Source: Bacteroidales bacterium (GTDB lineage Bacteria > Bacteroidota > Bacteroidia > Bacteroidales > UBA3824). Taken from it: a stretch of DNA of 53,815 bases. The translations under genes were made by a program, and so were the position numbers. Shown one piece after another: positions 34,213-45,262 of the stretch. The stretch covers positions 1 to 53,815 of the forward strand of contig JAFPYT010000246.1 of assembly GCA_017394445.1 (NCBI GenBank). The letters run 5' to 3'. The first letter of the stretch is position 1. Each line of letters opens with the position of its first letter. Below the pieces are notes generated by a model that was not told the origin of the DNA, did no database searches, and saw nothing but the letters and a program-made list of their open reading frames with translations.

Positions 34213-34347
34213 TTTGGTGTTATTTTATGTGATTTAACTAATAAAAAACGCTGATTTTGGGCGGTTTAGTATGGAGAGGATAGGGAAATATCGTTTGTAG
34301 TTTTATAGTTTATGTAAGGATTTTTTGTGGATTGCAAAAAAAAGTTT

Positions 34348-35220
34348 TTACAAATTTCCCATTATCGCAGGTATCAGCGATGAATCCAAGATTTCAAAAG
34401 CAAAGCATTTTTTGCCTAAGTCTTTGAGAGATGCGCCGATGTGATAAAGGGTAGTGTTGTCGATAATTAGAAAACGGTCGTGCATTGTGGCTGTTTGCTT
34501 AAGGGTTAATGTTGGATATTGGGCGTTGAAAGTTTGAACATCTTGTGCAGTGAGAGGTGTGTTGTTTTTTGTGTAGATTGTAACTTTAACACCAGGTTGC
34601 TTTTTGGTGAGACGTTGTAATATGCTAAGATCCACGTAGTTGTCTATTAAGATAATCTCCTTTGTAGCGGCTTGTAAAAAACTCTCAAATTTGGCGTATG
34701 CGTCGAAGATTTGACCTTGAAAGAATATGCCCTGTGTATCGTCGATTGCGTATTTGTCCATACGTTCAAAAAGTTCGTCGATGCGGTGGTCTGCATTCAA
34801 TTGATGATGCTTGATAGCAACTATTTCGTCAAACAACATCAAATTGTTTTGCAAAAACTTTCGCATTGCTACAAAAGCGTTCATTATCTGTATGCTGACA
34901 TTTACCGCAGTGTTGCTTTTTAATACTGCGCTAAGCATTGCCACGCCTTGCTCCGTGAAAGCATACGGTGGGCGACGCAAACCCATTTTGTCAGAATTGG
35001 AGGTCACAATTTGTGACCTCCAATTTGTAAATTCAGTATTATTCAACTGAAACATAAAGTTTTGCGGAAACCTTTCGATGTTTCTTTTTACGGCTTGGTT
35101 GAGGACTTTTGTCTCCACACCGTATAACTCCGCCAAATCACGATCGAGCATTACTTGCTGTCCCCTGATAACGAGGATTTTGTTTTCTATATTGATGGTT
35201 TGCAACGGGTTGTTTGGCAT
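34348..35220 (-). CDS. ORF6N DNA-binding domain protein with C-terminal PLD-like (HDRF) domain, copy 1
   Basis: IRGQQVMLDRDLAELYGVETK.LNQAVKRN.ERFP..FMFQL and AFTEQGVAMLS (ORF6N). C-terminus has IILIDNY and HDRFLIID...HIGASLKDLGKK. Confidence 0.9.
   Translation of the reverse strand: MPNNPLQTINIENKILVIRGQQVMLDRDLAELYGVETKVLNQAVKRNIERFPQNFMFQLNNTEFTNWRSQIVTSNSDKMGLRRPPYAFTEQGVAMLSAVLKSNTAVNVSIQIMNAFVAMRKFLQNNLMLFDEIVAIKHHQLNADHRIDELFERMDKYAIDDTQGIFFQGQIFDAYAKFESFLQAATKEIILIDNYVDLSILQRLTKKQPGVKVTIYTKNNTPLTAQDVQTFNAQYPTLTLKQTATMHDRFLIIDNTTLYHIGASLKDLGKKCFAFEILDSSLIPAIMGNL
34995..35025. repeat. perfect 31-bp intragenic palindrome
   Basis: AATTGGAGGTCACAA-T-TTGTGACCTCCAATT, 15-bp arms. Confidence 0.95.
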
Positions 35221-35242
35221 TTTTTGATTCGTTTATTTTCGG

Positions 35243-35274
35243 CAAAATTACTGAGTTTTTTTGTGCCTTCCAAA
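35243..35274 (-). promoter_or_regulatory. sigma-A promoter of ORF6N copy 1
   Basis: Minus strand TTTG-N20-TAATTTTG. Confidence 0.7.
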
Positions 35275-35290
35275 AAAATCTCTTCAAAAT

Positions 35291-35322
35291 AAAGGCAGCA
35301 AACCCAACGGTTTGCTGCCTTT
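35291..35322 (-). terminator. intrinsic terminator after the M56-TonB gene
   Basis: AAAGGCAGCAAACC-caac-GGTTTGCTGCCTTT. Confidence 0.8.
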
Positions 35323-35345
35323 GTATTCATATTGTTTATTGTTTA

Positions 35346-36857
35346 TTATTTCTTTGTAGAAAATCTTATCGGCATTGACATCGGAACGTCAACTGGCTTG
35401 TTGTCTTTGATGCCGGGGTTAAAGTGGGGGAGCATTTCAATTACTCTTTTTGCCTCTTGGTCAAGCGATTCGTCACCGGCACTTCTTAATAATGTGATGT
35501 TGGTTACTTTGCCTTGCTTGTTTACCATAAATCTGTAATAGGCTGTGCCTGAGATGCCTTTTGATTTTGCCTCTTCGGGATATTGTATATTTTCGTTAAT
35601 GAAATTGAAGAGGGCTTTGTCGCCACCGGGAAATTGGGGCATTACATCTGGGGTAACGTATACTGAATCTTCATCGTTTTGTGGTGTTGTTACCCTGATT
35701 TTTACGGGATTAGCATTTTGCTCTTTGGATTTTTTGGTGGTGACGATTATTACTCCGTTAGCACCTTTTTCGCCGTATGCGTCTATGGCAGATTGGTCTT
35801 TGAGAACCATTATGCTTTTAACATTAGAAGCGTCAACGTCGTCCATCGTTCCCTCTTTGCCGTCGATTATTACAAGAGGCGATGAGGGTAGGGTAGAAAT
35901 GTCCATTTTTATGTTGTGATCCTTATCAATGGTTGCGGGACCGATAATGATTTGCTCTGAGGGTAACTTTGGTTCTGTGTTTACTACATCGTTAGGATTG
36001 TCGGACGGTTCGCTTTTTTTGGTGGTGATTTCAATTACGCCGTTTTGGGCATCATCGCCGTATTTGTCGGTTGCAGATGTGCCTTTATAAACGCTGATTG
36101 ATTTAATTTTTGACGATTCCACGGCTGAGGTGGTACTTGGTTTGCCATCGACAATTACAATGGGATCTTGCGGCGCAGTTTGGATATTCAAATTTAAATG
36201 GTTATCTTTGCTGCTGGTTACAACGATGGTTTGGGCGTTGCTTTCGGCGAATTTTGCTGTCAACAGTGCCGAAACTGCTATTGGCAATAGTACTTTGATT
36301 ACTGCCAATGGTGACGATTTTTTACTTGACATCATAGTTATACGTTTTTTTAAATTACTGTGATTCAGGCTGCTGGCTACTGAACTCCACTTCCTGCCGG
36401 CGGCCTTTTTTATTAATAATGTTTGATATTGTTTTGCATTGAATCCGGAGGCTATTACCTCGTGGTCGGCTTGATATTCGTGTACGGCACGCAATTCGCG
36501 TTTAAAGAGCCATATTGCAGGGTTGAACCATTGCAGACAGCAAGCCAAATCTATAAAAATCAAGTCGATAGAATGTCGTTGTGTGATGTGTGCCATTTCG
36601 TGAGTTAGCACTTCGCGCGAGTTTTCTTGATAATCGTGCGAGTTCATAAAAATATATCTTAACCAACTCACTGGCGATTTAATGGCTTCTGAGATAATTA
36701 GTTTGACACCTTCTCTTAAATTAATTTTGTGGCTGAATGCTACTTTGCCTATGATAGACAGCGTGGTAACTATGTATTTTAAGAAAAATAATGCTATGCC
36801 AACTGCTAAGATGTACGGAATAATTTCGGTAAAAGATATTTGTTATTCCGTTTCCAT
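35346..36857 (-). pseudogene. BlaR1/M56 peptidase with two plug-like repeats and TonB_C; in-frame TAA at codon 5
   Basis: ATG at 36857 just after blaI reads METE*QISFTEIIPYILAVGIALFF..., in frame with the 36671 ORF. HEMAH zinc motif, HEYQAD, two DGK...YG..G.NGVI.ITTKK repeats and TonB_C (MPQFPGG). Confidence 0.7.
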
Positions 36858-36862
36858 AGCGT

Positions 36863-37231
36863 TTAAGATTGAGCGTTTTGGTTTTCGATTTGCTGCAAAA
36901 GGTCTTTGATTTCGTCAGACGAAAGTTCGCCGTCGTCAACAAGAGCCGACACTGCGTTGGTGTACGAATTGTTGAAATACTCTTTGATAATGTTTTTGAG
37001 CGACTTGCGTCCAAAATCGCTGCGCTGTACTGTGGCGTAATACTGATAGGTGTTGCCATACGCCTTGTGACTTACAAAACCTTTTGACTCTAACATTCTT
37101 ACCATTGTGGAAACGGTGTTGAAATGCGGTTTGGGTTCGGGCATTAGGTCGAGAATGTCTTTTACAAACATTGGTCCTTTGTCCCAAAATAGGTTCATCA
37201 GTTCATCTTCTTTCTTTGTAAGTTTTTCCAT
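36863..37231 (-). CDS. BlaI/MecI/CopY family repressor
   Basis: LTKKEDELMNLFW, PKPHFNTVSTMVRMLESKGFV and YFNNSY..AVSALV. Confidence 0.92.
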   Translation of the reverse strand: MEKLTKKEDELMNLFWDKGPMFVKDILDLMPEPKPHFNTVSTMVRMLESKGFVSHKAYGNTYQYYATVQRSDFGRKSLKNIIKEYFNNSYTNAVSALVDDGELSSDEIKDLLQQIENQNAQS

Positions 37232-37261
37232 CTCTATTCTGTTTTGATTTATTTTACGCTG

Positions 37262-37326
37262 CAAATATAAACATATATTTTTAAATTCAACTACTTTTTA
37301 TAGTTTTTTAACTAAATATTTTAGTT
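37262..37326 (-). promoter_or_regulatory. blaI promoter (-7 TATATTTG at 37262-37269) with two AACTA-N7-TAGTT operator-like palindromes
   Basis: AACTACTTTTTATAGTT (37289-37305) and AACTAAATATTTTAGTT (37310-37326), 21 bp apart start to start. Confidence 0.65.
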
Positions 37327-37364
37327 AGTTTTTTTTAACAACGAATGAAACGAATGGAACGAAG

Positions 37365-37398
37365 AAAAAAAGGCAGCCTAAGATTTTTAGACTGCCTT
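37365..37398 (-). terminator. intrinsic terminator after the beta-helix lipoprotein gene
   Basis: Minus strand AAGGCAGTCTAA-loop-TTAGGCTGCCTT followed by a T run. Confidence 0.75.
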
Positions 37399-37419
37399 AT
37401 TATAAAGTGTGCAAAATGA

Positions 37420-38703
37420 TTAATCCATCTTGATTTTGTCTAAGCCGTCGAGGGTGGCTTCGTCGTCGATAACGCCTTCGATACCGGTGTTGACTATTAC
37501 TTTGGCTGATGAGGCGTCGGAAATGGTGATGTTGTCGCATCTCATATTGTCAACAAAGTTGCCGGCATTTTCTACGCGGACACCGTATTTTGCTTTGATG
37601 CGCGAGATGTTGCAGTTAGAGAATTTAAAGCCTGCGTCGGTAGAGATTAAAAATGCGCAGTCGTCGAAGAAATCTTTGCTGCCTGCGTTTTCAAAGTTGC
37701 AATAAGCAAAAACAGATTCGTCGTTTTGTTCGGTGCGGATTTCTGCGCCGTCCCAAGATCCGGGTTTGTCTTCTGCGCCTGCAAAAACAATTGGGTCGGC
37801 GGCTGTGCCTTGCGCCTTTATAATTGTTTCAGGACCTACGTAGAGTCTTGTGCCACGGTTGAAGGCAAATTTTGCACCCGCCTCGATTGTTGTGGTGGTG
37901 CGGTTGTTGAGTTCCAAACCTTCGTCGCAGAAGTAGGGTATGGATTCTTTGAGGAATGTGTATGATTTGCTGTCTTCGTCGAAACGAAATCTGGTTTTGA
38001 TGTAGTTTTTGCCGTTGTTTTGGTAGGTGTTGTTTTTGCCGCCCAATGTGGTGTTCTCTGTCCAAGTGTCATAAACTACGGGGAACTCTTTGCAGTTTTT
38101 GATGGTGTTGTTTTCAAAAGCGGTGGTTTTGAGTATGTAAATGCCGTTTTGTTCTGCGCCGTCGATAGTGCAGTTTTTAACCGAAGCCGAACCAGCAATT
38201 TTTAGTGCAAAATCGCTTGCACCGCCGTTTTGAAGGGTTACGTATTCAAGAATGTTGTCGGAGCGTTTAGATAGGATTTCCACAAAGCCCCAACTGCCTA
38301 CGTTTTGATTGTTGGTGGGTCCTGTGAGAACGATTGGCTTGTCTTGTGTGCCTTGCATTTTGATGCCTGCGTTTTCGCCAACAAAGATTCTGCCGTCGGT
38401 GCCGGTGAACATAATGGTAACGCCGGGTTCTACTGTAACGAGCGAGTTGCCGTTGAGATAGAGTTCGCCTTCTACGATGTAGTCAACGGGCAGTCCGAGG
38501 TCTTTCCAAGTAACGTTTTTGTCGATAGAGCCTGAGAGCACTACCTGACCGTCGGCGTTTTTAGGAGCGTCGGAAGGGTTTTGTTCGGTAATACCGTTGT
38601 CGTTGGTTTCGGGCGATTGAGCACCCTGATTGTTGTTGCTGCCACCCCCGCACGAAGCAAGGATAAGGGCAGAGGCTGCGATTAAAAATGGTGTCTTTTT
38701 CAT
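37420..38703 (-). CDS. lipoprotein with right-handed parallel beta-helix repeats
   Basis: Lipobox LASC. Two repeats of T(V/I)E.G..(I/F).F...QGT..DPIV..G.....GSW; NCTI/NNTI ladders. Confidence 0.75.
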   Translation of the reverse strand: MKKTPFLIAASALILASCGGGSNNNQGAQSPETNDNGITEQNPSDAPKNADGQVVLSGSIDKNVTWKDLGLPVDYIVEGELYLNGNSLVTVEPGVTIMFTGTDGRIFVGENAGIKMQGTQDKPIVLTGPTNNQNVGSWGFVEILSKRSDNILEYVTLQNGGASDFALKIAGSASVKNCTIDGAEQNGIYILKTTAFENNTIKNCKEFPVVYDTWTENTTLGGKNNTYQNNGKNYIKTRFRFDEDSKSYTFLKESIPYFCDEGLELNNRTTTTIEAGAKFAFNRGTRLYVGPETIIKAQGTAADPIVFAGAEDKPGSWDGAEIRTEQNDESVFAYCNFENAGSKDFFDDCAFLISTDAGFKFSNCNISRIKAKYGVRVENAGNFVDNMRCDNITISDASSAKVIVNTGIEGVIDDEATLDGLDKIKMD

Positions 38704-38890
38704 TGTGATGTGAGTTATTTGTTGTTTATTATTTTCTCCAAATATACAAAAAAACTCAATCCGTATAAAGGAAAAATATTGTAATTTTCTGAAACTTTTA
38801 TTATAACATTCGTAAAAGTTACTTGCATAGCACGGTTTTTGATTAATACTAATAATTTTGTATCAAATGGCAATCTTTACTTAACCTATT

Positions 38891-39819
38891 ATGAAGCACG
38901 GTATTTGTCCATATCCCGGTCTGCGACCGTTTACCGAAGAGGAGAGTATCTTCTTTAAAGGCAGGGATTTGCATATACGTCAGATTGTGCGGCTCTTGGA
39001 AGAAAACAAGATGGCGTTTATCACCGGTGCATCGGGCGATGGAAAATCGTCGATGGTGTATGCCGATGTTGTGCCGTATATTAGGGCAGGATTTTTTAAG
39101 GCGGATTTCAATAGTTGGATTATTACCGACTTTAAGCCGCAGCGCAACCCACTCGCCTCGCTTGCCGAAGCGCTCTCTAATACAGCGGCTATATCAATTC
39201 GGCTGTGCTTTCTAACGACAAGACCAAAATAGTTCCCGCTCTTGATGATGGCGAAGTTTTTATCTATTATGCACAATCGCTTGATAAAAAATCTGTTGCA
39301 AATGCTAATCTAAACAAAAAGATTATATCAATTGCCTCGTCTGGCAATAATGATGAATACTATGTTTTGATGCACACAGGCGAACTTGTTAAATGGAATT
39401 CTGCCAACAATAATACAAAAGAGGTGTTCTCTCGTTCTCGCCATATTGCCTCGTCCTTAACCGCTATTCTTGACAAAAATCTGCTTGTGGTGTGCTATGC
39501 CGACGGTACTATTTTTTATTTTGATATCCAGTTGCTTGCCATCATAGGTTCCGATAAGCGCATAACATTGCTCGACACCAAAGATTTTGCGTCGCAGCCG
39601 TTTTACATCGAAGAAAACAACCTTCGTAGCAGTCGTGTCAACGCTGTTAGGTTCAACCAAAAAGGCATTCTCTTTGCCCTCACCGACAAAAACCAAATAC
39701 TCTATTGGGATTCCGACATCAACCAATACGCCAAATCGTTAGAAACCCTCAACTTGCAGCCGCTAACAGCAAATGAAAAGAGTTTGGTATTAGGACGAGA
39801 GTTTGCAGGGGGGTGGTGA
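38891..39819 (+). pseudogene. STAND NTPase (nSTAND1-like) / WD40 protein remnant with large internal deletion
   Basis: N-terminal CPYPGLRPF..EES.FF.GR and Walker A GASGDGKSS end after about 96 aa. This abuts, out of frame near 39178, a WD40-like C-terminal fragment. Confidence 0.75.
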
Positions 39820-42800
39820 TTATATTACCTCTTTCATTCTTGCATAATGCATTACGCTGGCAGGTATTTCATCCACCATTTTCCACCGAATTTGCATTTG
39901 ATAACGTGTGCCAAGATTTTTGTATTCCCAATCTTTGAGAGTAACTTTTCCTAAATAGACATATCCCATGGTGCGCGATTTGTCTTCGGCAAAATTCTTC
40001 TGCTCACGAACAAATAAAAGCATGGTTTGTGTTTGATTGATATATGCCTAACCTTCGTTTGAATCAGGACGTACACGATTTTGTGTGTCCCATTGAAATA
40101 GACTACTGGTCAAAGCCTTATCGTCGTAATCTGTTGTAGAACCCTCTTCGCGATTTTTGATAATATCCACAAACATGGCTTCTACTTTTGTGTTTTTGTT
40201 GCGTTCTACACCTTCTCGTGCCGGTGATTTTTTTTCGAGTGTGGATGTGCCGATAGCAACCTGAATTTGTGATTTTGTATAAATTCCATGCAGTTTGAGC
40301 GGAAAATTCATCAGTTGCGAATTGTCGGGCTTTTCGTAAGCATTATTGTTTTTTTGCAATAGTGGCACAACTTGTTTCATTTCGTCGCAAAAACATGAAT
40401 CCTTAGCAAGTGCATCTACCATTTCTTGAAGACTCGTATATTTGCCCGAAGTTTCAAAAAGGTCGTAATAAAACATCAATAGCCTTGTTTGGTCAACGGC
40501 TGACAGTTGTTTTACGTTGATTTTAAATGATTTTTGTGCTATTGAGTTTATGAAACTTAAATAAGAATACGAATCTGTGGCCAACCATTTGCGGTATACA
40601 GCCCGGCTTAATTCTTCGTTGTAATTTGATTGTGTGTTTACGATGTTAGATTCGTTTAACAGTTGATTCCACGTTCTTCCTTTGTATAATCTCTCCAATG
40701 GAATTTGGTATATATCTACAAAGTTTTCGAGATTGAGCGGCACTGAATGATTACGATCAAAATTTTGAATTAAAGCCGTAAGTTTGCGTGAATTATAATT
40801 TAAGATTGCATTTTTAAGGTTGTTTACAATATATTCCTTGGCTTTTGGCTCCAAAATTATTTGACATTTTAACGGCAAATGTGGGCAGTTGAGATTTAAT
40901 TCTTCTAATACGCTCATCGAAGTTCGTCCCATCATTGTTCGCATACGGTCGGTATAGTTAAATTCTGCACGACTATTGCCTACATAGTCTAAGATATTTA
41001 CATATTCCTTGCCCGGTGCTTTGCGCAATCCACGTCCAAATTGTTGGATAAACACTGTGAGACTTTCTGTTGGTCGTAAAAATAAAATTGTGTCCACTTC
41101 CGGAATATCAACACCTTCGTTGAACATGTCTACTACAAACAGATAGTTTATGCTTTTGGTTTTAAGCCTGTTATATAAAACTGTACGCATTGGGGCGTTG
41201 TCGCTTGTAAGAACATCCGCTTTTAATCCGCATAATGTAAACTTTGATGCCATATATTTTGCATGTTCTTGGTCAACACAAAAACACAATGCCCTTACAT
41301 CGCGAATGTTATCCAAATATTTTTGCAACGAGCGTAATATCACCTCGGTACGTGCGTCGTTGTATCTATAAATTTTTGAAAGTTCGGATATTACATAATG
41401 ACCTTTGTCCCAAGCCACTTCGGAATAATCAACACTATCTGTAATACCATAATAATGAAATGGAGCAAGCAATCCTTTATTTAAAGCATCGTCGAGACGT
41501 ATTTCCGCCGAAATAGTTCCGTCAAAATCATGTTTAATATCCATTCCATCCATACGTTCGGGAGTGGCGGTTAGTCCCAATAGTATTTTGGGTTTAAAAT
41601 AATCAATAATTTTTCGATACGATGAAGCGTAGCGTGATGCACTTCGTCGATAATGATATAATCATAATAATCCGCAGGAAGATTTATCTTATCCAAACGG
41701 TTGTTTAAGGTATCTTTTGAAGCAAAAATGTATTCAAAATTGTTGGGTTCTTGGCCGCTATACCATTTTTCACCAAAGTTGTAATCGCAAAGAACTTGTC
41801 GAAAAGTATTGATACTCTGTCTGATAATTTCTTCACGGTGAGCCACAAACAATAATCGAGCACGGTCGTGTTTATCAGCAAACTGTTTATAATCGCTGGC
41901 TGCCATTACCGTTTTACCTGTTCCTGTTGCCGCTACAACAAGATTTCGCCAATGATTGCGAACTTCGCGTTCTACTTGTAGACGTTCTAATATTTCACGT
42001 TGATAATCAAACGGACGGATTAATCCTGTTAAATTTGAAAAATCTATTTCGTTGTTAATCTTGCCGTTGAGTGCTGATTTTAAACGTGCATCATCTTTAC
42101 CATTGATAAAAGTTTCATAACTTTCAGCCCACCACGATGCTTTGAACGAATTGCAGATTGTTTTCATCATCTGCGGCTGTTCGTATTGCGTAATCTTTAC
42201 ATTCCACTCTGCGCCTGTATCCAGAGCCTGTTGTGATAGATTCGACGAACCAATGTAAGCCGTATTAAAACCTGTATCGCGTAGAAAAATATAAGCCTTG
42301 GCGTGAAGGCGTTCGGAAGTTTCGTCGTAGGTAATTTTAATTTCGGTATTTTTAAGTGTCGCAAGTTGTTTAACGGCCTCAAAATCGGTGGCTTGTAAAT
42401 AAGTAGTGGTTATTACTTTCAAATTCCCGCCGCGGTTTGTAAATTCTTTAAGTTGTGGCAACAGCAAAGCAAGTCCACTTTTCTTGATAAACGATACCAT
42501 AAAATGTATTTCATCGGCAGAAGCAATTTCTTTTTGCAATTCGGTGTAAAGTTTCATGTCCTTACCTGTAAACAACGCTCCGTTAACGAGCCCTTTTATA
42601 GGCATGATTTCTTGCAATCTCTTTGCTAAATCGGGATAATCAGATTGTGTTTTGTCTATTACCGCGGTCAATATTTTTGCTTGCGCCGAAACCAAATTGC
42701 CTGATTCTAAATTAAACTCGTTTACCAATTTTTTGATAATTGCATTTGCCAAGTTTATTCCTTTGAAAATGGAGTTTGATGGTAGCAAATCTTCATCATC

Positions 42801-42983
42801 CTCGTCTAAATCAGAGTCGGTTAATACCTGTTCAAAAATATTTGTAAGGTACATAGATAAAAGTTTAGCAACCTCGTGTTTTTCAATAGTTCTTTCTCCG
42901 ATGTAAAAACGGTTTTGATCTATTGCTGATATTTTTTCTTCAAATAGTTGATTAATTATTTGTTCGTAAATACCGGTCTGCAT
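39820..42983 (-). pseudogene. SauUSI-like PLD nuclease / SF2 helicase / DUF3427 protein, disrupted
   Basis: RLHAKAYIF..GSSNLS (HKD-like), ATGTGKT, DEVHH, GLTATPER, DMFNEGVD, QQFGRGLR, DY.D.A...LFQW.TQN. One-base frameshift near 41630 and in-frame TAG at 40048-40050. Confidence 0.85.
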
Positions 42984-43012
42984 AAATTTTATGGTATGTA
43001 AAAGTATCTATG

Positions 43013-43043
43013 CAAAACTATTGTTTTTTTCTTTTAGAGCAAA
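43013..43043 (-). promoter_or_regulatory. sigma-A promoter of the PLD-helicase gene
   Basis: Minus strand TTTG-N19-TAGTTTTG. Confidence 0.6.
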
Positions 43044-43083
43044 AGAAATTGGGGATAAAATTTTGGGGATTGCAAAAAAGTTT

Positions 43084-43974
43084 TTACAAGTTTCCCATTA
43101 TTGCCGTTATCAGCGATGAATCCAATATTTCAAATGCAAAGCACTTTTTGCCTAAGTCTTTGAGTGATGCGCCGATGTGGTAAAGGGTGGTGTTGTCGAT
43201 TATCAGAAAACGGTCGTGCATTGTGGTGGTAGGTCTGACTGTTAGGGTGGGATATTGGGCGTTGAAGGTTTGAATGTCTTGGGCTGTGAGTGGGGTGTTG
43301 GGTTTTGTGTATATGGTAACGTTAACGCCCGGTTGTTTTTTTGTAAGGCGTTGTAATACACTTAAATCCACATAGTTGTCTATCAAGATAATTTCTTTTG
43401 TTGCAGATTGAATAAAACTCTCAAATTTGGCGTATGCGTCGAAGATTTGACCTTGAAAGAATATGCCCTGAGTATCGTCGATTGCGTATTTGTTCATACG
43501 GTCAAAGAGTTCGTCGATGCGGCGGTCGGATTCTTTTTGATGAATATTTACTTTAAGCAACTGATTTTTAATCGTATTGATTTCTGTAAAAATCTGAGCG
43601 TTATTGTGCAAGAAATGCCGCATAGAAACAAACGCCCGCATAATTTGAATGTTGACCTCAACCGCCTTTTGTGATTTCAATACCGATGATAGCATCGCCA
43701 CACCTTGTTCTGTGAAAACAAAGGGTAATGATGGAGAAAATTTCAATGCTTGGAGGTGGTCGCAAATTGCGACCACCTCGTCTTTCTCGGTTTTGTTCAG
43801 CGAAAACATAAAATCCTCAGGAAATCGCTCGATATTGCGTTTAACTTGTTCGTTGAGGCGTTTTGTCTCCACACCGTACAACTCCGCCAAATCGCGGTCG
43901 AGCATCACTTGCTGCCCACGGATTACGAGTATTTTGTTTTCGATATTGATGGGTTGTAATGAGTTATCGAGCAT
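43084..43974 (-). CDS. ORF6N DNA-binding domain protein with C-terminal PLD-like (HDRF) domain, copy 2
   Basis: Same motifs as 34348-35220. Start set at ATG 43974 by alignment with copy 1 and by promoter position. Confidence 0.9.
   Translation of the reverse strand: MLDNSLQPINIENKILVIRGQQVMLDRDLAELYGVETKRLNEQVKRNIERFPEDFMFSLNKTEKDEVVAICDHLQALKFSPSLPFVFTEQGVAMLSSVLKSQKAVEVNIQIMRAFVSMRHFLHNNAQIFTEINTIKNQLLKVNIHQKESDRRIDELFDRMNKYAIDDTQGIFFQGQIFDAYAKFESFIQSATKEIILIDNYVDLSVLQRLTKKQPGVNVTIYTKPNTPLTAQDIQTFNAQYPTLTVRPTTTMHDRFLIIDNTTLYHIGASLKDLGKKCFAFEILDSSLITAIMGNL
43753..43779. repeat. perfect 27-bp intragenic palindrome
   Basis: GAGGTGGTCGCAA-A-TTGCGACCACCTC, 13-bp arms. Confidence 0.95.
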
Positions 43975-43998
43975 AATATTGATTCTATCAATTTTCAG

Positions 43999-44030
43999 CA
44001 AAGTTACTAACAATTTTTGTGTCTTGCAAA
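43999..44030 (-). promoter_or_regulatory. sigma-A promoter of ORF6N copy 2
   Basis: Minus strand TTTG-N20-TAACTTTG. Confidence 0.7.
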
Positions 44031-44086
44031 AAAAGTTTCTCATCTCTTGTGCAACTCTTATTCTATTTATTCCGTATCTTTGCCTT

Positions 44087-45262
44087 ATGAAACAGTACAT
44101 TCTAATTTCAATATTACTATTAACTTGGGGTGTTGTGGCGGGTCAAAATGATACTACAAGGCACGGCGGCTATATTCCGCTGTTCGACAACCTTACTTCG
44201 CCCGATGTGCCGCTGCCCAATGATTACAATGGTAAATTGCGCACTACTAATTCTGATAGCATTCAGGTGAGCGTGGAGGAGGCTGTGGAAAACCTCCGAA
44301 ACCTCTATAATGCCGGTAGGTTTAGCGAGGCGCTCGGATATGCGTTGTATGTGCGTATGCGCAAGCACGAAGACCGTTTTACCAAGGAAGAAACCGAAGT
44401 TTTTCATAAATATGCCATTGCCTCTATGAAGGAGATGGGTTTTGACTATAAGGCCGATTCGCTTATGAAGATTTTTTGCCGTCAAAGTCCTTTTTACGAG
44501 GTAAAAGATGATGATCCCGATGCGTTTGTAAAACTAAAAGATAAATTTGTTACACGTCCTATACTCGGCATAAGGGTTTCGAGTAGCAAGGATTACCCTA
44601 TAATTACTCTCGACACTGTGTACACCGTGCGCGATAAGGAGACAGGCTATAAGTACCAAAACTTTAAGGGTTCGTCGTTTGGGGCAGATGTGGTTTATTA
44701 CCCGATGAAAAATTTGGAAGTGTCGACAGGTGTGATGTTTTCTAAATTGGGCTTTACACGATTGGAACATAGTCAAAAGGTGAAGTTTTCGTATACCGAA
44801 AATGATCGTCTGATTTCGTTTCCCTTAGAGGTAGGATATTGTTTTAAGCCGTTTTGGGGATTGGTAATTCCCGAATTTTTTGCAGGAGCAAGGCTGTCGC
44901 TATTGCACAAAAGCACCTACGAGGTAAGCGACCAAGTGTTTAAACTCAACTCGGTGGGCAGCACTACCGAAGATGTTGCTTGCGAAGGTGATTTTGATAA
45001 TGTAAAAAACTCATTTGTAACTCTTTATGGTGGATTTAGGCTAAATTACGAAATTCGTAGGATATGTTTTTTTGCAGGAGCATATTACGGAGCGGCTTTG
45101 GGCGAATTACGAAAACCTGAGGATAATTACACAAATGTAGAACTTATTGTAAACCATCGTTTTATGCCCGACGCTATACGTGTGGGACAAGTTTCGGTAA
45201 ACCTTGGCGTTAAAGTAAACCTATATTATAAGACGTTTGCCAAATACGGTTACGGCTATTAA
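44087..45262 (+). CDS. PorT-like outer membrane beta-barrel protein with helical N-terminal domain
   Basis: Signal peptide MKQYILISILLLTWGVVAG and an amphipathic beta-strand C-terminal half (ISFPLEVGY, PEFFAGA, VNLGVKVNLY). TATCTTTG lies at 44075-44082. Confidence 0.65.
   Translation: MKQYILISILLLTWGVVAGQNDTTRHGGYIPLFDNLTSPDVPLPNDYNGKLRTTNSDSIQVSVEEAVENLRNLYNAGRFSEALGYALYVRMRKHEDRFTKEETEVFHKYAIASMKEMGFDYKADSLMKIFCRQSPFYEVKDDDPDAFVKLKDKFVTRPILGIRVSSSKDYPIITLDTVYTVRDKETGYKYQNFKGSSFGADVVYYPMKNLEVSTGVMFSKLGFTRLEHSQKVKFSYTENDRLISFPLEVGYCFKPFWGLVIPEFFAGARLSLLHKSTYEVSDQVFKLNSVGSTTEDVACEGDFDNVKNSFVTLYGGFRLNYEIRRICFFAGAYYGAALGELRKPEDNYTNVELIVNHRFMPDAIRVGQVSVNLGVKVNLYYKTFAKYGYGY

Follow-up and report, generated by a model that had tools for sequence, protein, structure and literature searches.

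Most genes of the ORF6N family carry a palindrome within their coding sequence; each palindrome is probably the cognate site, on duplex DNA, for the helix-turn-helix domain that its gene encodes, a conclusion reached without binding data. Two such genes, paralogs that both lie on the minus strand, are found in the window (the whole stretch of DNA that was analysed, 53,815 nucleotides from a Bacteroidales bacterium). The features of the two genes are as follows.

34348..35220, minus strand: copy 1 gene, an ORF of 290 amino acids with ORF6N at residues 13-99, long helices at 103-156 and a C-terminal PLD-like domain at about 160-290.
35083..35112, minus strand: predicted recognition helix of copy 1, codons 37-46 (TKVLNQAVKR), which holds K38, V39 and Q42.
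34995..35025, no strand: in-gene palindrome of copy 1, A-type core GTCACAA-T-TTGTGAC, 15+1+15.
43084..43974, minus strand: copy 2 gene, an ORF of 296 amino acids from the ATG at 43974, with the architecture of copy 1 and belonging to the alternative-frame subfamily.
43837..43866, minus strand: predicted recognition helix of copy 2, codons 37-46 (TKRLNEQVKR), with R39 and E42.
43753..43779, no strand: in-gene palindrome of copy 2, G-type core GTCGCAA-A-TTGCGAC, 13+1+13, read in the other frame as E-V-V-A-I-C-D-H-L.

An earlier note, made from the sequence alone, had claimed a perfect palindrome in each gene, and its coordinates and sequences proved exact: AATTGGAGGTCACAA-T-TTGTGACCTCCAATT at 34995-35025 in copy 1 and GAGGTGGTCGCAA-A-TTGCGACCACCTC at 43753-43779 in copy 2, both with arms that are 100% complementary. 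Both palindromes fall within the Pfam ORF6N domain (PF10543) and, as had been claimed, are flanked by the FMFxL and FTEQG blocks. The claim of a shared core, GTCRCAAWTTGYGAC, read in different frames (WRSQIVTSN versus EVVAICDHL) also held, as copy 1 reads ...TGG AGG TCA CAA ATT GTG ACC TCC AAT (NWRSQIVTSN) and copy 2 reads GAG GTG GTC GCA ATT TGC GAC CAC CTC (EVVAICDHL). The claimed spacing of 30 versus 29 residues between the anchors held in part, in that 28 residues were counted in copy 1 and 27 in copy 2 and the one-residue difference stands. With up to two mismatches allowed, the core GGTCRCAAWTTGYGACC occurs within the window only at the two palindromes, and it was found in 0 of 100 dinucleotide shuffles of the window. 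The scan for further core sites that the note had proposed returned only two exact matches to GGTCRCAAWTTGYGACC in the 3.92-Mb genome, namely the two in-gene palindromes. In five RNA libraries only 5-10% of the words sampled were present, in each case within assembled contigs, from which ends, strand and level cannot be read; several of these contigs match the palindrome only (34995-35029) and come from other genes.

The palindrome is conserved across the family. Matches to ORF6N were present in 129 of the 401 Bacteroidota genomes sampled, and the wider comparison was based on 133 unique segments spanning the FxFxL and FTExG anchors, drawn from 192 loci after five loci without an anchor match were dropped. 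The hosts sampled were bacteria, archaea and viral contigs, with records from WOR-1, Omnitrophota, Planctomycetota, Patescibacteria, Firmicutes, Proteobacteria, Woesearchaeota, Methanosarcinales and IMG/VR contigs. The mean palindrome score of the 133 segments was 11.5, versus 4.8 for codon-resampled versions, and scores of at least 10 were reached by 95/133 segments versus 18/6650 resamples. In this codon-controlled comparison, which the note had also proposed, the palindrome was clearly enriched, with 109/133 segments exceeding all 50 of their own resamples. A palindrome scoring at least 8 occurs at the same spot in 124/133 segments and is centered on the first base of an I/F codon in 103 of those 124. 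The remaining 9/133 segments score below 8, and thus the in-gene site is not indispensable. The sister family Bro-N, whose segments were extracted by a phmmer-based method, shows the same in-gene feature in the same genome.

Pairing of the arms overrides the peptide: synonymous sites and amino acids co-vary while the arms stay paired. The codon pairs found on opposite arms include Arg AGG/Thr ACC, Lys AAG/Thr ACT, Lys AAA/Ile ATT and Met ATG/Thr ACA, as well as Ile ATA/Ile ATA, Ser TCA/Val GTG and Ser TCG/Ala GCG. A second subfamily of seven members (6/177 unique domains plus locus L255) reads the core in the alternative frame, as V-[AT]-[NI]-C-D; its members are about 56% identical to each other, and all have kept the palindrome. 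As 6/7 of these members belong to the RE class (defined below), the alternative frame provides one independent contrast only. A structure prediction of the alternative-frame N-terminal region from five sequences gave a pLDDT of 48.9, too low to show the fold. Arm covariation and the use of two frames in two subfamilies bear out, family-wide, the claim that it is the dyad, not the peptide, that is under selection.

A palindrome in coding sequence might be kept for the hairpin that it forms in the sense mRNA, as a control of translation, stability or processing, without being a protein-bound DNA site. In support of this rival, which was among the options that the note had listed, RNAfold predicts a strong local hairpin for almost all homologues, the stem is kept paired by compensatory changes, and some of the upstream copies described below would fall in the 5′ leader. 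However, among 1750 stem positions there are 9 sense G.U pairs versus 34 A.C pairs, the reverse of what is expected from selection on an RNA stem. The innermost pair, which is unable to form in a hairpin, is still complementary: the Gln codon at the site is CAA in 114 cases and CAG in 4, versus 396 : 278 for the other Gln codons of the same domains. Symmetry is thus kept up to the center, where a hairpin could not pair. Nor does a hairpin account for the way in which base pair 4 of the site can be predicted from two helix residues. Rfam covariance models searched over 34300-44100 at E <= 1 gave no match at the palindromes and only a chance-level one (tsr25, 35291-35427) away from both. The mRNA hairpin is therefore disfavored and considered very unlikely.

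The strongest evidence for a protein-bound site is a residue-to-base rule. Positions 39 and 42 (copy-1 numbering) are separated by one turn of the predicted recognition helix, and in 137/137 sequences base pair 4 of the in-gene site can be predicted from the residues at these positions: xQ goes with A in 85/85, RE with G in 39/39 and x[R/K] with C in 13/13. In addition, position 38 tracks base pair 7 of the site. These pairings (Gln-A, Arg-G and, on the other strand, Arg/Lys-G) correspond to the usual contacts between amino acids and bases. The AF2 model of copy 1 (pLDDT 80.9) predicts that residues 37-46 form the second helix of a helix-turn-helix, and that the residues encoded by the palindrome (N-W-R-S-Q-I-V-T-S-N, residues 66-75) pass from the end of helix 61-70 into the start of a low-confidence loop (pLDDT about 41). 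Because residues 39/42 predict base pair 4 without exception, the palindrome is most likely the protein's own cognate site. The note's option of an intragenic operator bound by ORF6N itself is accordingly the best supported of those it offered, on the strength of this rule and of the upstream non-coding copies, again in the absence of binding data.

Mutual information with site position 4, of a possible 1.27 bits, amounts to 1.27 bits for domain column 29 and 1.22 bits for column 26, and is at most 0.24 bits for columns 31-50, which lie between the helix and the site. The low values of these intervening columns show that the residue-base link is not a linkage block. All 20 of 20 disjoint closest pairs that differ at site position 4 also switch residues, being 75-88% identical elsewhere. 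A tree built on the 61 remaining columns is weak, with 2 independent contrasts on supported branches versus 27 on all branches, and the case for covariation is based not on tree contrasts but on the mutual-information profile and the 20 contrasts between closest pairs. Since residues 39/42 predict base pair 4, copy 1 (V39/Q42, GTCACAA) and copy 2 (R39/E42, GTCGCAA) are likely to have different, probably orthogonal specificities, for which there are no binding data.

The arms are perfectly symmetric to 13-17 bp although their outer positions vary. This is longer than expected for a simple helix-turn-helix dimer footprint, and so leaves room for a hairpin or cruciform or for template-switch correction. 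With regard to the last of these, the palindrome could be without function, kept by template-switch (quasipalindrome) correction, the apparent code being due to hitch-hiking linked variants. Template switching copies one arm onto the other, center included, and can introduce paired changes or insertions in one step. Symmetry at the innermost pair would thereby be explained. It cannot explain the 137/137 association with residues about 75 nt away across columns of such low mutual information, the 85-fold excess of this core in upstream DNA, or the persistence of the palindrome in both reading frames and in two protein families, and it is rated very improbable.

Upstream copies were sought within 400 bp of 134 unbiased genes as strict sites, defined as CAA-N-TTG plus three more perfect pairs. 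There are 17 such sites, in 14/134 genes, versus 0.2 expected by chance, which is the 85-fold excess referred to above. In one gene (L193) the same 12-bp arms are repeated 31 bp before the ATG, and upstream repeats of a gene's own arms are also present in two others (L060 and L094). A promoter-proximal copy, some 236-262 bp from the in-gene site, is present in about 10% of ORF6N genes. The class of the upstream site is that of the adjacent protein in 8/17 cases only. Cross-regulation by a resident paralog was considered as the cause of upstream sites of another class and is unsupported in two genomes: G243 has a single ORF6N gene (VQ class) and yet a G-type site 29 bp before the ATG, and in G375, with G-type sites upstream of the intact gene, the sole other ORF6N copy is an AQ-class pseudogene. 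Cross-regulation of this kind therefore does not account for those cases.

The non-coding copies bear on a further rival, in which the palindrome would serve replication, recombination or mobile-DNA transfer as a cruciform or single-stranded DNA hairpin and be recognized by its shape, not by the ORF6N helix. The arms are long and perfect, their AT-rich center (AAWTT) would favor extrusion, the outer arms vary and remain paired, and the family has been widely transferred between phyla, across which ORF6N identity is 60-83%. Against this, the sequence of the core GTCRCAAWTTGYGAC is itself conserved, in the non-coding copies as well, the genes that bear the site occur in many contexts and with many C-terminal architectures, and an unsystematic look found no consistently adjacent partner enzyme. 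Recognition by shape also gives no reason for the residue-to-base rule, and it too is rated very improbable.

The two window proteins are clear members of the family. Copy 1 matches Pfam PF10543 ORF6N with 123.7 bits over residues 13-99 (3.7e-36) and copy 2 with 112.6 bits over residues 14-99, the curated gathering cut-off being 27.8 bits. A PDB sequence search with the domain profile gave a chance-level match only (E 0.55), so that no solved relative is recognized by sequence. Both match the PADLOC PDC-S05 profile PDLC04869 (306 positions) over its full length, copy 1 at 12-290 (E 2.4e-120) and copy 2 at 12-296 (E 9e-116), and no PADLOC models other than those for PDC-S05 matched either protein. 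This agrees with the note's suggestion of a defence module, defence itself not being shown. In a preprint (10.1101/2024.09.26.614923), one PDC-S05 representative gave an approximately 1000-fold drop in EOP for T7 and T5; that representative is described with a Virulence_RhuM domain, and the presence of ORF6N in it is not established. A Pfam scan of both proteins found no KilA-N match and, beside ORF6N, a sub-threshold Rha match. Homology to BstA, in the sense of a KilA-N-like N-terminus together with a BstA C-terminal domain, was likewise not detected by the Pfam and PADLOC scans.

The note's claim of a nuclease-like domain held at the level of fold. Foldseek matches for the copy 1 model comprise Nuc, NucT, Zucchini and TrmBL2, and a PLD fold is supported by NucT (6ehi_B, E 1.7e-4, TMt 0.54), Nuc (1byr, E 2.2e-4, TMt 0.56) and Zucchini (4ggk, TMt 0.52). 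The catalytic motif of the PLD superfamily is HxK(x)4D (HKD). Residues H247, D248, R249, D254, H260, G262, S264 and K266 are invariant across 21 long forms, and the catalytic motif is not met, since Arg replaces its Lys (H247-D-R249). Pfam PLDc models did not match either protein at E <= 0.01. The fold raises the possibility that the site is the cleavage target of this domain, in a restriction-like system whose own gene carries the recognition site. In its favor are the PLD fold shared with Nuc, NucT and Zucchini, the combination of a DNA-binding domain with a PLD domain, and the status of the family as a PADLOC defence candidate. However, most palindrome-bearing genes (94/132 ORFs) are short forms of 160-200 amino acids without the PLD-like domain, the HKD lysine is replaced and the PLDc models are unmatched. 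A self-targeting nuclease would also need a protection mechanism, of which there is no sign. A cleavage target is thus a remote possibility.

The top-ranked Foldseek match for the whole copy 1 model is TrmBL2 (5box_A, E 4.1e-6), and the two have in common a winged-helix-type DNA-binding domain at the N-terminus, long helices and an alpha/beta domain at the C-terminus. They superpose poorly (TM 0.31, rmsd 20 A) and are unrelated in sequence, and to our knowledge no in-gene site has been reported for TrmB proteins.

In the explanation favored here, that of a cognate site for the encoded domain, the site would be embedded in codons for a structurally tolerant part of the ORF6N domain. As it lies within the domain's own codons, protein and site would be inherited as one unit. 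The protein is inferred, not shown, to bind as a dimer across the dyad. What occupancy would do is likewise inferred. It may repress the gene by a roadblock, or by looping where upstream sites exist, a proposal held only tentatively; neither window gene has an extra site near its promoter with at least 10/12 core matches, and therefore the looping model does not apply to them. Alternatively or additionally, the site may label the gene's own replicon as 'self', to be recognized as such by a defence protein, in the manner of aba and BstA; this rests on analogy and is likewise tentative.

BstA is an abortive-infection (phage-defence) protein with an N-terminal KilA-N-like DNA-binding domain, and aba is a short DNA element in the bstA locus, cognate to each homologue, that gives self-immunity and is inseparable from the BstA gene because it overlaps it (Owen et al. 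2021, PMC8585504). For ORF6N, a cognate element within the gene is supported by the residue-to-base rule, with immunity inferred only by analogy. The aba element, 63 bp long, spans the start codon and requires direct CCCGCC repeats at its ends; it is not a palindrome, and that word is absent from the text of the paper. The ORF6N element is a perfect palindrome of 27-31 bp in the middle of the domain's coding sequence, and most members of the family have it. The sections of that paper that bear on the question do not show that BstA binds aba.

Binding sites within the binding protein's own coding sequence are known from parS inside spo0J/parB and the lambda ori iterons inside gene O, which are single well-studied loci with partition or replication roles. 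Unlike these, the ORF6N site is family-wide, travels with the domain, is read in two frames and diversifies with the recognition-helix residues. Intragenic auxiliary operators that co-operate with a promoter operator are also known, such as lacO2 in lacZ and galOI in galE. The roughly one-tenth of ORF6N genes that pair the in-gene site with a promoter-proximal copy resemble these, but lacO2 and galOI lie in the regulated gene and not in the regulator's own DNA-binding domain, and most ORF6N genes, both window genes included, have the in-gene site only. The note knew of no description of such a palindrome, and none was found for the ORF6N, Bro-N or KilA-N families in the literature searched (titles/abstracts); in a bioRxiv paper on B. 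fragilis cardiolipin synthases an ORF6N gene appears merely as a neighbor.

A bolder reading, possible when its parts are taken jointly, is that ORF6N, and apparently Bro-N too, are portable cassettes of a protein plus its own address, in which the gene would be its product's docking site. The DNA site would be under stronger constraint than the encoded peptide, and would thus survive a change of reading frame. The simple code linking residue 42 to base 4 and residue 38 to base 7 would diversify into classes that are orthogonal to each other. Within a defence island, of which this is one, each defence protein would be silenced on its own replicon by the in-gene site, acting as a self tag; this would be BstA/aba in a general, palindromic form, with the window paralogs as two orthogonal immunity specificities. 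If this is true, a very widespread and almost uncharacterised family gains a predicted binding site and a readable specificity code, and any ORF6N gene states its own target sequence, which is directly testable. It would also be a clear natural case of a DNA signal that dictates protein sequence, with the same signal read in two frames and amino-acid pairs co-varying through the need of their codons to pair. It would further supply candidate defence genes (PDC-S05 and, in the case of Bro-N, PDC-S13) with a mechanism parallel to BstA/aba, the one example studied by experiment.

Between codons 9 and 52, copy 1 and copy 2 differ by 15 synonymous and only 3 non-synonymous changes (V39R, Q42E and A43Q). 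Over their first 52 residues the window paralogs therefore differ almost only at specificity positions, which is likely to make them a suitable pair for testing orthogonality.

The palindromes lie within two paralogous genes, termed copy 1 and copy 2, whose products are 79% identical and carry the DNA-binding ORF6N domain (Pfam PF10543):

34348-35220, minus strand: copy 1 gene, 290 aa, N-terminal Pfam ORF6N
34995-35025: copy 1 palindrome, AATTGGAGGTCACAA-T-TTGTGACCTCCAATT, arms 100% complementary about one central base
43084-43974, minus strand: copy 2 gene, 296 aa, N-terminal Pfam ORF6N
43753-43779: copy 2 palindrome, GAGGTGGTCGCAA-A-TTGCGACCACCTC, arms 100% complementary about one central base

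When the window was re-read, the coordinates and sequences reported for both palindromes in the earlier note held exactly. Its spacings of 30 and 29 aa between the flanking FMFxL and FTEQG peptide blocks did not, as 28 residues are counted in copy 1 and 27 in copy 2; the one-residue difference stands. The two palindromes are the sole occurrences in the window of the common core GGTCRCAAWTTGYGACC with up to two mismatches (0 of 100 dinucleotide shuffles contain it), and the only exact matches in the 3.92-Mb genome. No additional site was found near the copy 1 or copy 2 gene. A dyad at 35291-35316 (GGCAGCAAAC-CCAAC-GGTTTGCTGCC), just 3′ of a BlaR1/TonB-type gene and upstream of copy 1, is apparently an ordinary terminator hairpin and has no relation to the ORF6N site.

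Three collections of homologous loci were made, all without selection on codon choice. A Pfam-profile search of 401 Bacteroidota genomes found a match in 129, and 30 loci were retrieved. A degenerate-peptide scan, covering bacteria and archaea at one genome per species, gave 80 loci, and the identical scan of IMG/VR viral contigs gave another 80. The 192 loci available at that stage, less five without a peptide-anchor match, yielded 133 unique inter-anchor segments. The best palindrome per segment was scored at +1 per matching pair and -2 per mismatch, and control segments kept the peptide with every codon redrawn from pooled usage (50 resamples per segment). The mean score was 11.5 in real segments versus 4.8 in the resampled versions, and scores of at least 10 were reached by 95/133 real segments versus 18/6650 resamples. 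The enrichment over codon-shuffled controls expected of homologues was borne out, with 109 of the 133 segments exceeding all 50 of their own resamples. Nine segments do not fit the pattern, scoring below 8; among the 124 scoring 8 or more, the centre is the first base of an Ile or Phe codon in 103. Hosts by record in the peptide scan include WOR-1, Omnitrophota, Planctomycetota, Lentisphaerota, Patescibacteria groups, Chloroflexota and Firmicutes, together with several proteobacterial classes, one Woesearchaeota and two Methanosarcinales archaea. The palindrome belongs to the ORF6N domain and not to its fusion with the C-terminal domain, since most relatives that carry it (94/132 ORFs) are short forms, 160-200 aa in length, that lack the C-terminal domain. 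In six loci (L015, L032, L061, L085, L102 and L215) the palindrome-encoding motif is tandemly duplicated inside the domain, as in ...MRSQIALS...LRSQFVIL... of L032.

Stems are variable among family segments, yet both arms change in concert. A single frame runs through both arms, so that complementary codons tie amino acids to one another, as seen in the residue pairs Arg AGG/Thr ACC, Lys AAG/Thr ACT, Lys AAA/Ile ATT, Arg AGA/Ile ATC, Met ATG/Thr ACA, Ile ATA/Ile ATA, Ser TCA/Val GTG, Ser TCG/Ala GCG and Phe TTC/Gly GGA. At this site, then, the nucleic acid constrains the protein sequence. The core encodes R-S-Q-I-V-T in copy 1 and, one base out of register, V-V-A-I-C-D in copy 2. An alternative-frame subfamily with core V-[A/T]-[N/I]-C-D comprises copy 2, L088, L193, L196, L203 and L204 (6/177 unique domains), and additionally L255. 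Over 130 residues its members share only about 56% identity with copy 2, and the palindrome is kept in 7/7; the frame switch is therefore a property of two old subfamilies. The claim that the palindromes are conserved as DNA but read in different frames accordingly held, and extends beyond these two genes.

The site also varies together with the protein, and this apparent recognition code is the decisive result. For this comparison 145 unique near-full domains, including 30 loci retrieved by DNA pattern, were aligned to a profile, and the 137 with a palindrome score of at least 8 were used (the remaining 8 were excluded). Position 4 of the site, counted from the centre, takes three values, which define A-, G- and C-type cores. 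Mutual information with this position peaks at domain columns 29 (1.27 bits) and 26 (1.22 bits), the maximum possible being 1.27; the residue encoded by the site itself reaches 1.11 bits, and each of columns 31-50, between the helix and the site, at most 0.24 bits. Gln at residue 29 accompanies A at position 4 (85/85), Arg26 with Glu29 accompanies G (39/39), and Arg or Lys at residue 29 accompanies C (13/13), with no exception in the contingency table of 137 sequences. Gln-adenine and Arg-guanine are textbook contacts. The rule is obeyed by 7/7 alternative-frame members, six with Arg-Glu (RE) and G, and one with Val-Gln (VQ) and A. A looser match links column 25 to position 7 (Lys with G, 60/61; Arg or Ser with A, 41/48).

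Could shared ancestry account for this match? In 20/20 disjoint closest pairs that differ at position 4 the residues also switch, at 75-88% identity elsewhere. A FastTree phylogeny on the 61 remaining columns required 37 state changes; it is poorly supported (2 contrasts on supported branches, 27 on all branches), so that the phylogenetic argument has to rely on the closest-pair test and the signal-free intervening columns. In copy 1, columns 25, 26 and 29 are residues 38, 39 and 42. An AlphaFold model (pLDDT 80.9), for which 21 long-form homologues were used, places all three on helix 37-46, predicted as the second of a helix-turn-helix; in the same model the stretch encoded by the palindrome takes in the end of helix 61-70 and passes into a loop (pLDDT about 41). 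Copy 1 combines V39/Q42 with GTCACAA, and copy 2 R39/E42 with GTCGCAA. Across codons 9-52 the two differ by 15 synonymous and 3 non-synonymous changes (V39R, Q42E and A43Q). The paralogs are therefore old enough for silent changes to have accumulated, yet the N-terminal half of the domain has diverged only at the specificity positions, and each copy has a matching site of its own.

Copies of the site are also encountered outside the domain. The 15-mer GTCRCAAWTTGYGAC is present in 61/401 Bacteroidota genomes, the reversed-pattern control giving single matches in 21, and many of the matches cluster by ORF6N genes outside the domain. Strict sites (CAA-N-TTG plus three more perfect pairs) were counted in an unbiased set of 134 unique full domains: 96 lie within the domain, 17 in the 400 bp upstream (in 14/134 genes, with 0.2 expected by chance), 6 farther upstream, 12 in the first 700 bp downstream and 3 beyond. 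At locus L193 the in-domain 12-bp arms recur 31 bp before the ATG, and L196 carries a site at 29 bp before its own. L060 and L094 each have their unusual arms again upstream, and L014 has four sites within 230 bp. The class of the upstream site equals that of the adjacent protein in only 8/17 cases, a poor fit, and no resident ORF6N paralog of the other class was found in the two genomes G243 and G375. Arrays of 2-4 sites of differing classes occupy 80-230 bp of non-coding DNA at G095:C15:49878-49955 and upstream of L014 and L204. The window's own genome (G000) holds two further elements:

Contig C13, 3235-3255 (L197:1498-1518): solo G-type site GATGTCGCAATTTGCGACATC, between the 3′ ends of two convergent ORFs
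Contig C127, 2082-2264 (L003/L224): third ORF6N copy, truncated by a stop codon just after ...NLRFQNGTSSWGGTR

No ORF6N gene was found within 1.5 kb of the solo site. In the truncated copy the arms AACTTGAGGT / ACCTCAAGTT remain paired where the family has its palindrome, and the C-type core agrees with the helix residues A and K. Other genomes contributed four more solo sites (L198, L219, L220 and L221), likewise with no domain nearby.

A palindrome within a gene might alternatively reflect selection on a stem in the sense RNA. This is unlikely: among 1750 stem positions there are 9 G.U-type pairs on the sense strand versus 34 A.C-type, the opposite of what a selected RNA stem predicts, although one redundant viral family contributes part of the A.C and A.A counts. 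Moreover, symmetry is maintained at the innermost pair, a pair that no hairpin can form: for Gln at the site, CAA is used 114 times and CAG 4 times, versus 396 and 278 for other Gln codons of the same domains. Pair-type counts, innermost-pair symmetry and the non-coding copies together make a duplex DNA site the likely reading. One misfit is that the arms extend farther, and with more perfect symmetry, than we would expect of a simple dimer footprint.

The sister family Bro-N (Pfam PF02498; PADLOC PDC-S13) has two genes in the window's genome, with in-gene palindromes that share the central ACAA-W-TTGT of ORF6N:

Contig C61 (L223:1507-2361), minus strand: Bro-N gene 1, in-gene palindrome AGTTGGTAACAA-T-TTGTTACCAACT
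Contig C127 (L224:1145-2029): Bro-N gene 2, in-gene palindrome GGTTACAA-A-TTGTAACC

Both coincide with the peptide [L/T]-V-T-N-C-[Y/N]-Q-L. Gene 1 has a further palindrome, GGGGGACAA-A-TTGTCCCCC, 35 bp before its ATG (centre 2396 of L223), of a class that is in-gene in the Bro-N homologues L242 and L252 and also lies about 840 bp 3′ of ORF6N genes on three viral contigs (L115, L116 and L152). A search of 301 Bacteroidota genomes supplied 31 unique homologous segments, of which 28 reach a score of 8 or more and 20 exceed all 50 of their codon resamples; here too the arms vary together, and the peptides differ. The phenomenon therefore appears to include this sister family.

The site is conserved, independent of frame, present in non-coding copies and matched to a protein helix. 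From these properties the ORF6N domain is inferred to bind, probably as a dimer, to the palindrome that its own gene contains; there are no binding data. The leading interpretation of the earlier note, an intragenic operator for the ORF6N domain itself, is thus supported computationally, the function of the site being undemonstrated. Autorepression is one inferred role, which we put forward with the balance slightly against it: a dimer sitting on the site would obstruct transcription within the gene, and might loop to promoter-proximal copies where such copies exist (site centres are some 236-262 bp apart in measured cases). A self tag is a possibility ranked just behind, by analogy with BstA, whose locus contains a DNA element, aba, that is cognate to each homologue and, carried on a replicating element, suppresses the defence protein (PMC8585504). 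BstA is the one studied relative, and a relative by analogy only. The two roles are not mutually exclusive. A site embedded in coding sequence cannot be parted from its protein by horizontal transfer, an arrangement that suits either.

Cases in which a binding site lies within the gene for the protein that binds it are already known: parS in spo0J, lambda ori in gene O, intragenic auxiliary operators, and aba in bstA. In the literature searched, at title and abstract level, we found no description of such a site as a family-wide attribute of a DNA-binding domain, positioned inside that domain's own codons, surviving a change of reading frame, or diversifying with a readable residue-to-base rule.

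Along their entire length both proteins match PDC-S05, a candidate defence family of PADLOC (E 2.4e-120 and 9e-116). By structure comparison of the model, the C-terminal domain has the PLD fold (Nuc, NucT, Zucchini, PLD3 and the pseudo-enzyme FAM83); neither protein matches a Pfam PLDc model. The invariant C-terminal motif is H247-D-R249-x4-D254...H260-x-G262-x-S264-x-K266, and in the long forms arginine replaces the lysine of HKD enzymes. The domain may be a nuclease, its activity being undecided. The best structural match of the whole model is the archaeal chromatin protein TrmBL2, with poor superposition. Downstream of the palindrome copies 1 and 2 diverge more strongly, and their C-terminal 140 residues are nearly identical again. 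The most diverged part is a predicted long helix (127-156), within which lies a seven-residue indel, that is one heptad (copy 1 residues 138-139, about 34804-34809; copy 2 residues 138-145, about 43540-43563). These differences may bear on pairing between copy 1 and copy 2.

The DNA between the copies has a content that is, in part, typical of a defence island:

Between the copies: BlaR1/TonB-type fusion and its BlaI-type repressor
Between the copies: beta-helix lipoprotein
38891-39819, plus strand: nSTAND1 NTPase and WD40 propeller fragments
40048-42983, minus strand: Type IV methyl-directed restriction-like gene (PLD/NgoFVII, ResIII, Helicase_C, DUF3427)

The fragments at 38891-39819 are two short overlapping ORFs that between them contain the first 90 positions of an nSTAND1 NTPase profile and part of a WD40-type propeller, and are likely the remains of a single broken STAND gene. 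The restriction-like gene is split at 41571-41580 into two overlapping ORFs that match positions 17-362 and 365-873 of the 945 in PADLOC mREase_IV, for which either a frameshift or an assembly error is possible.
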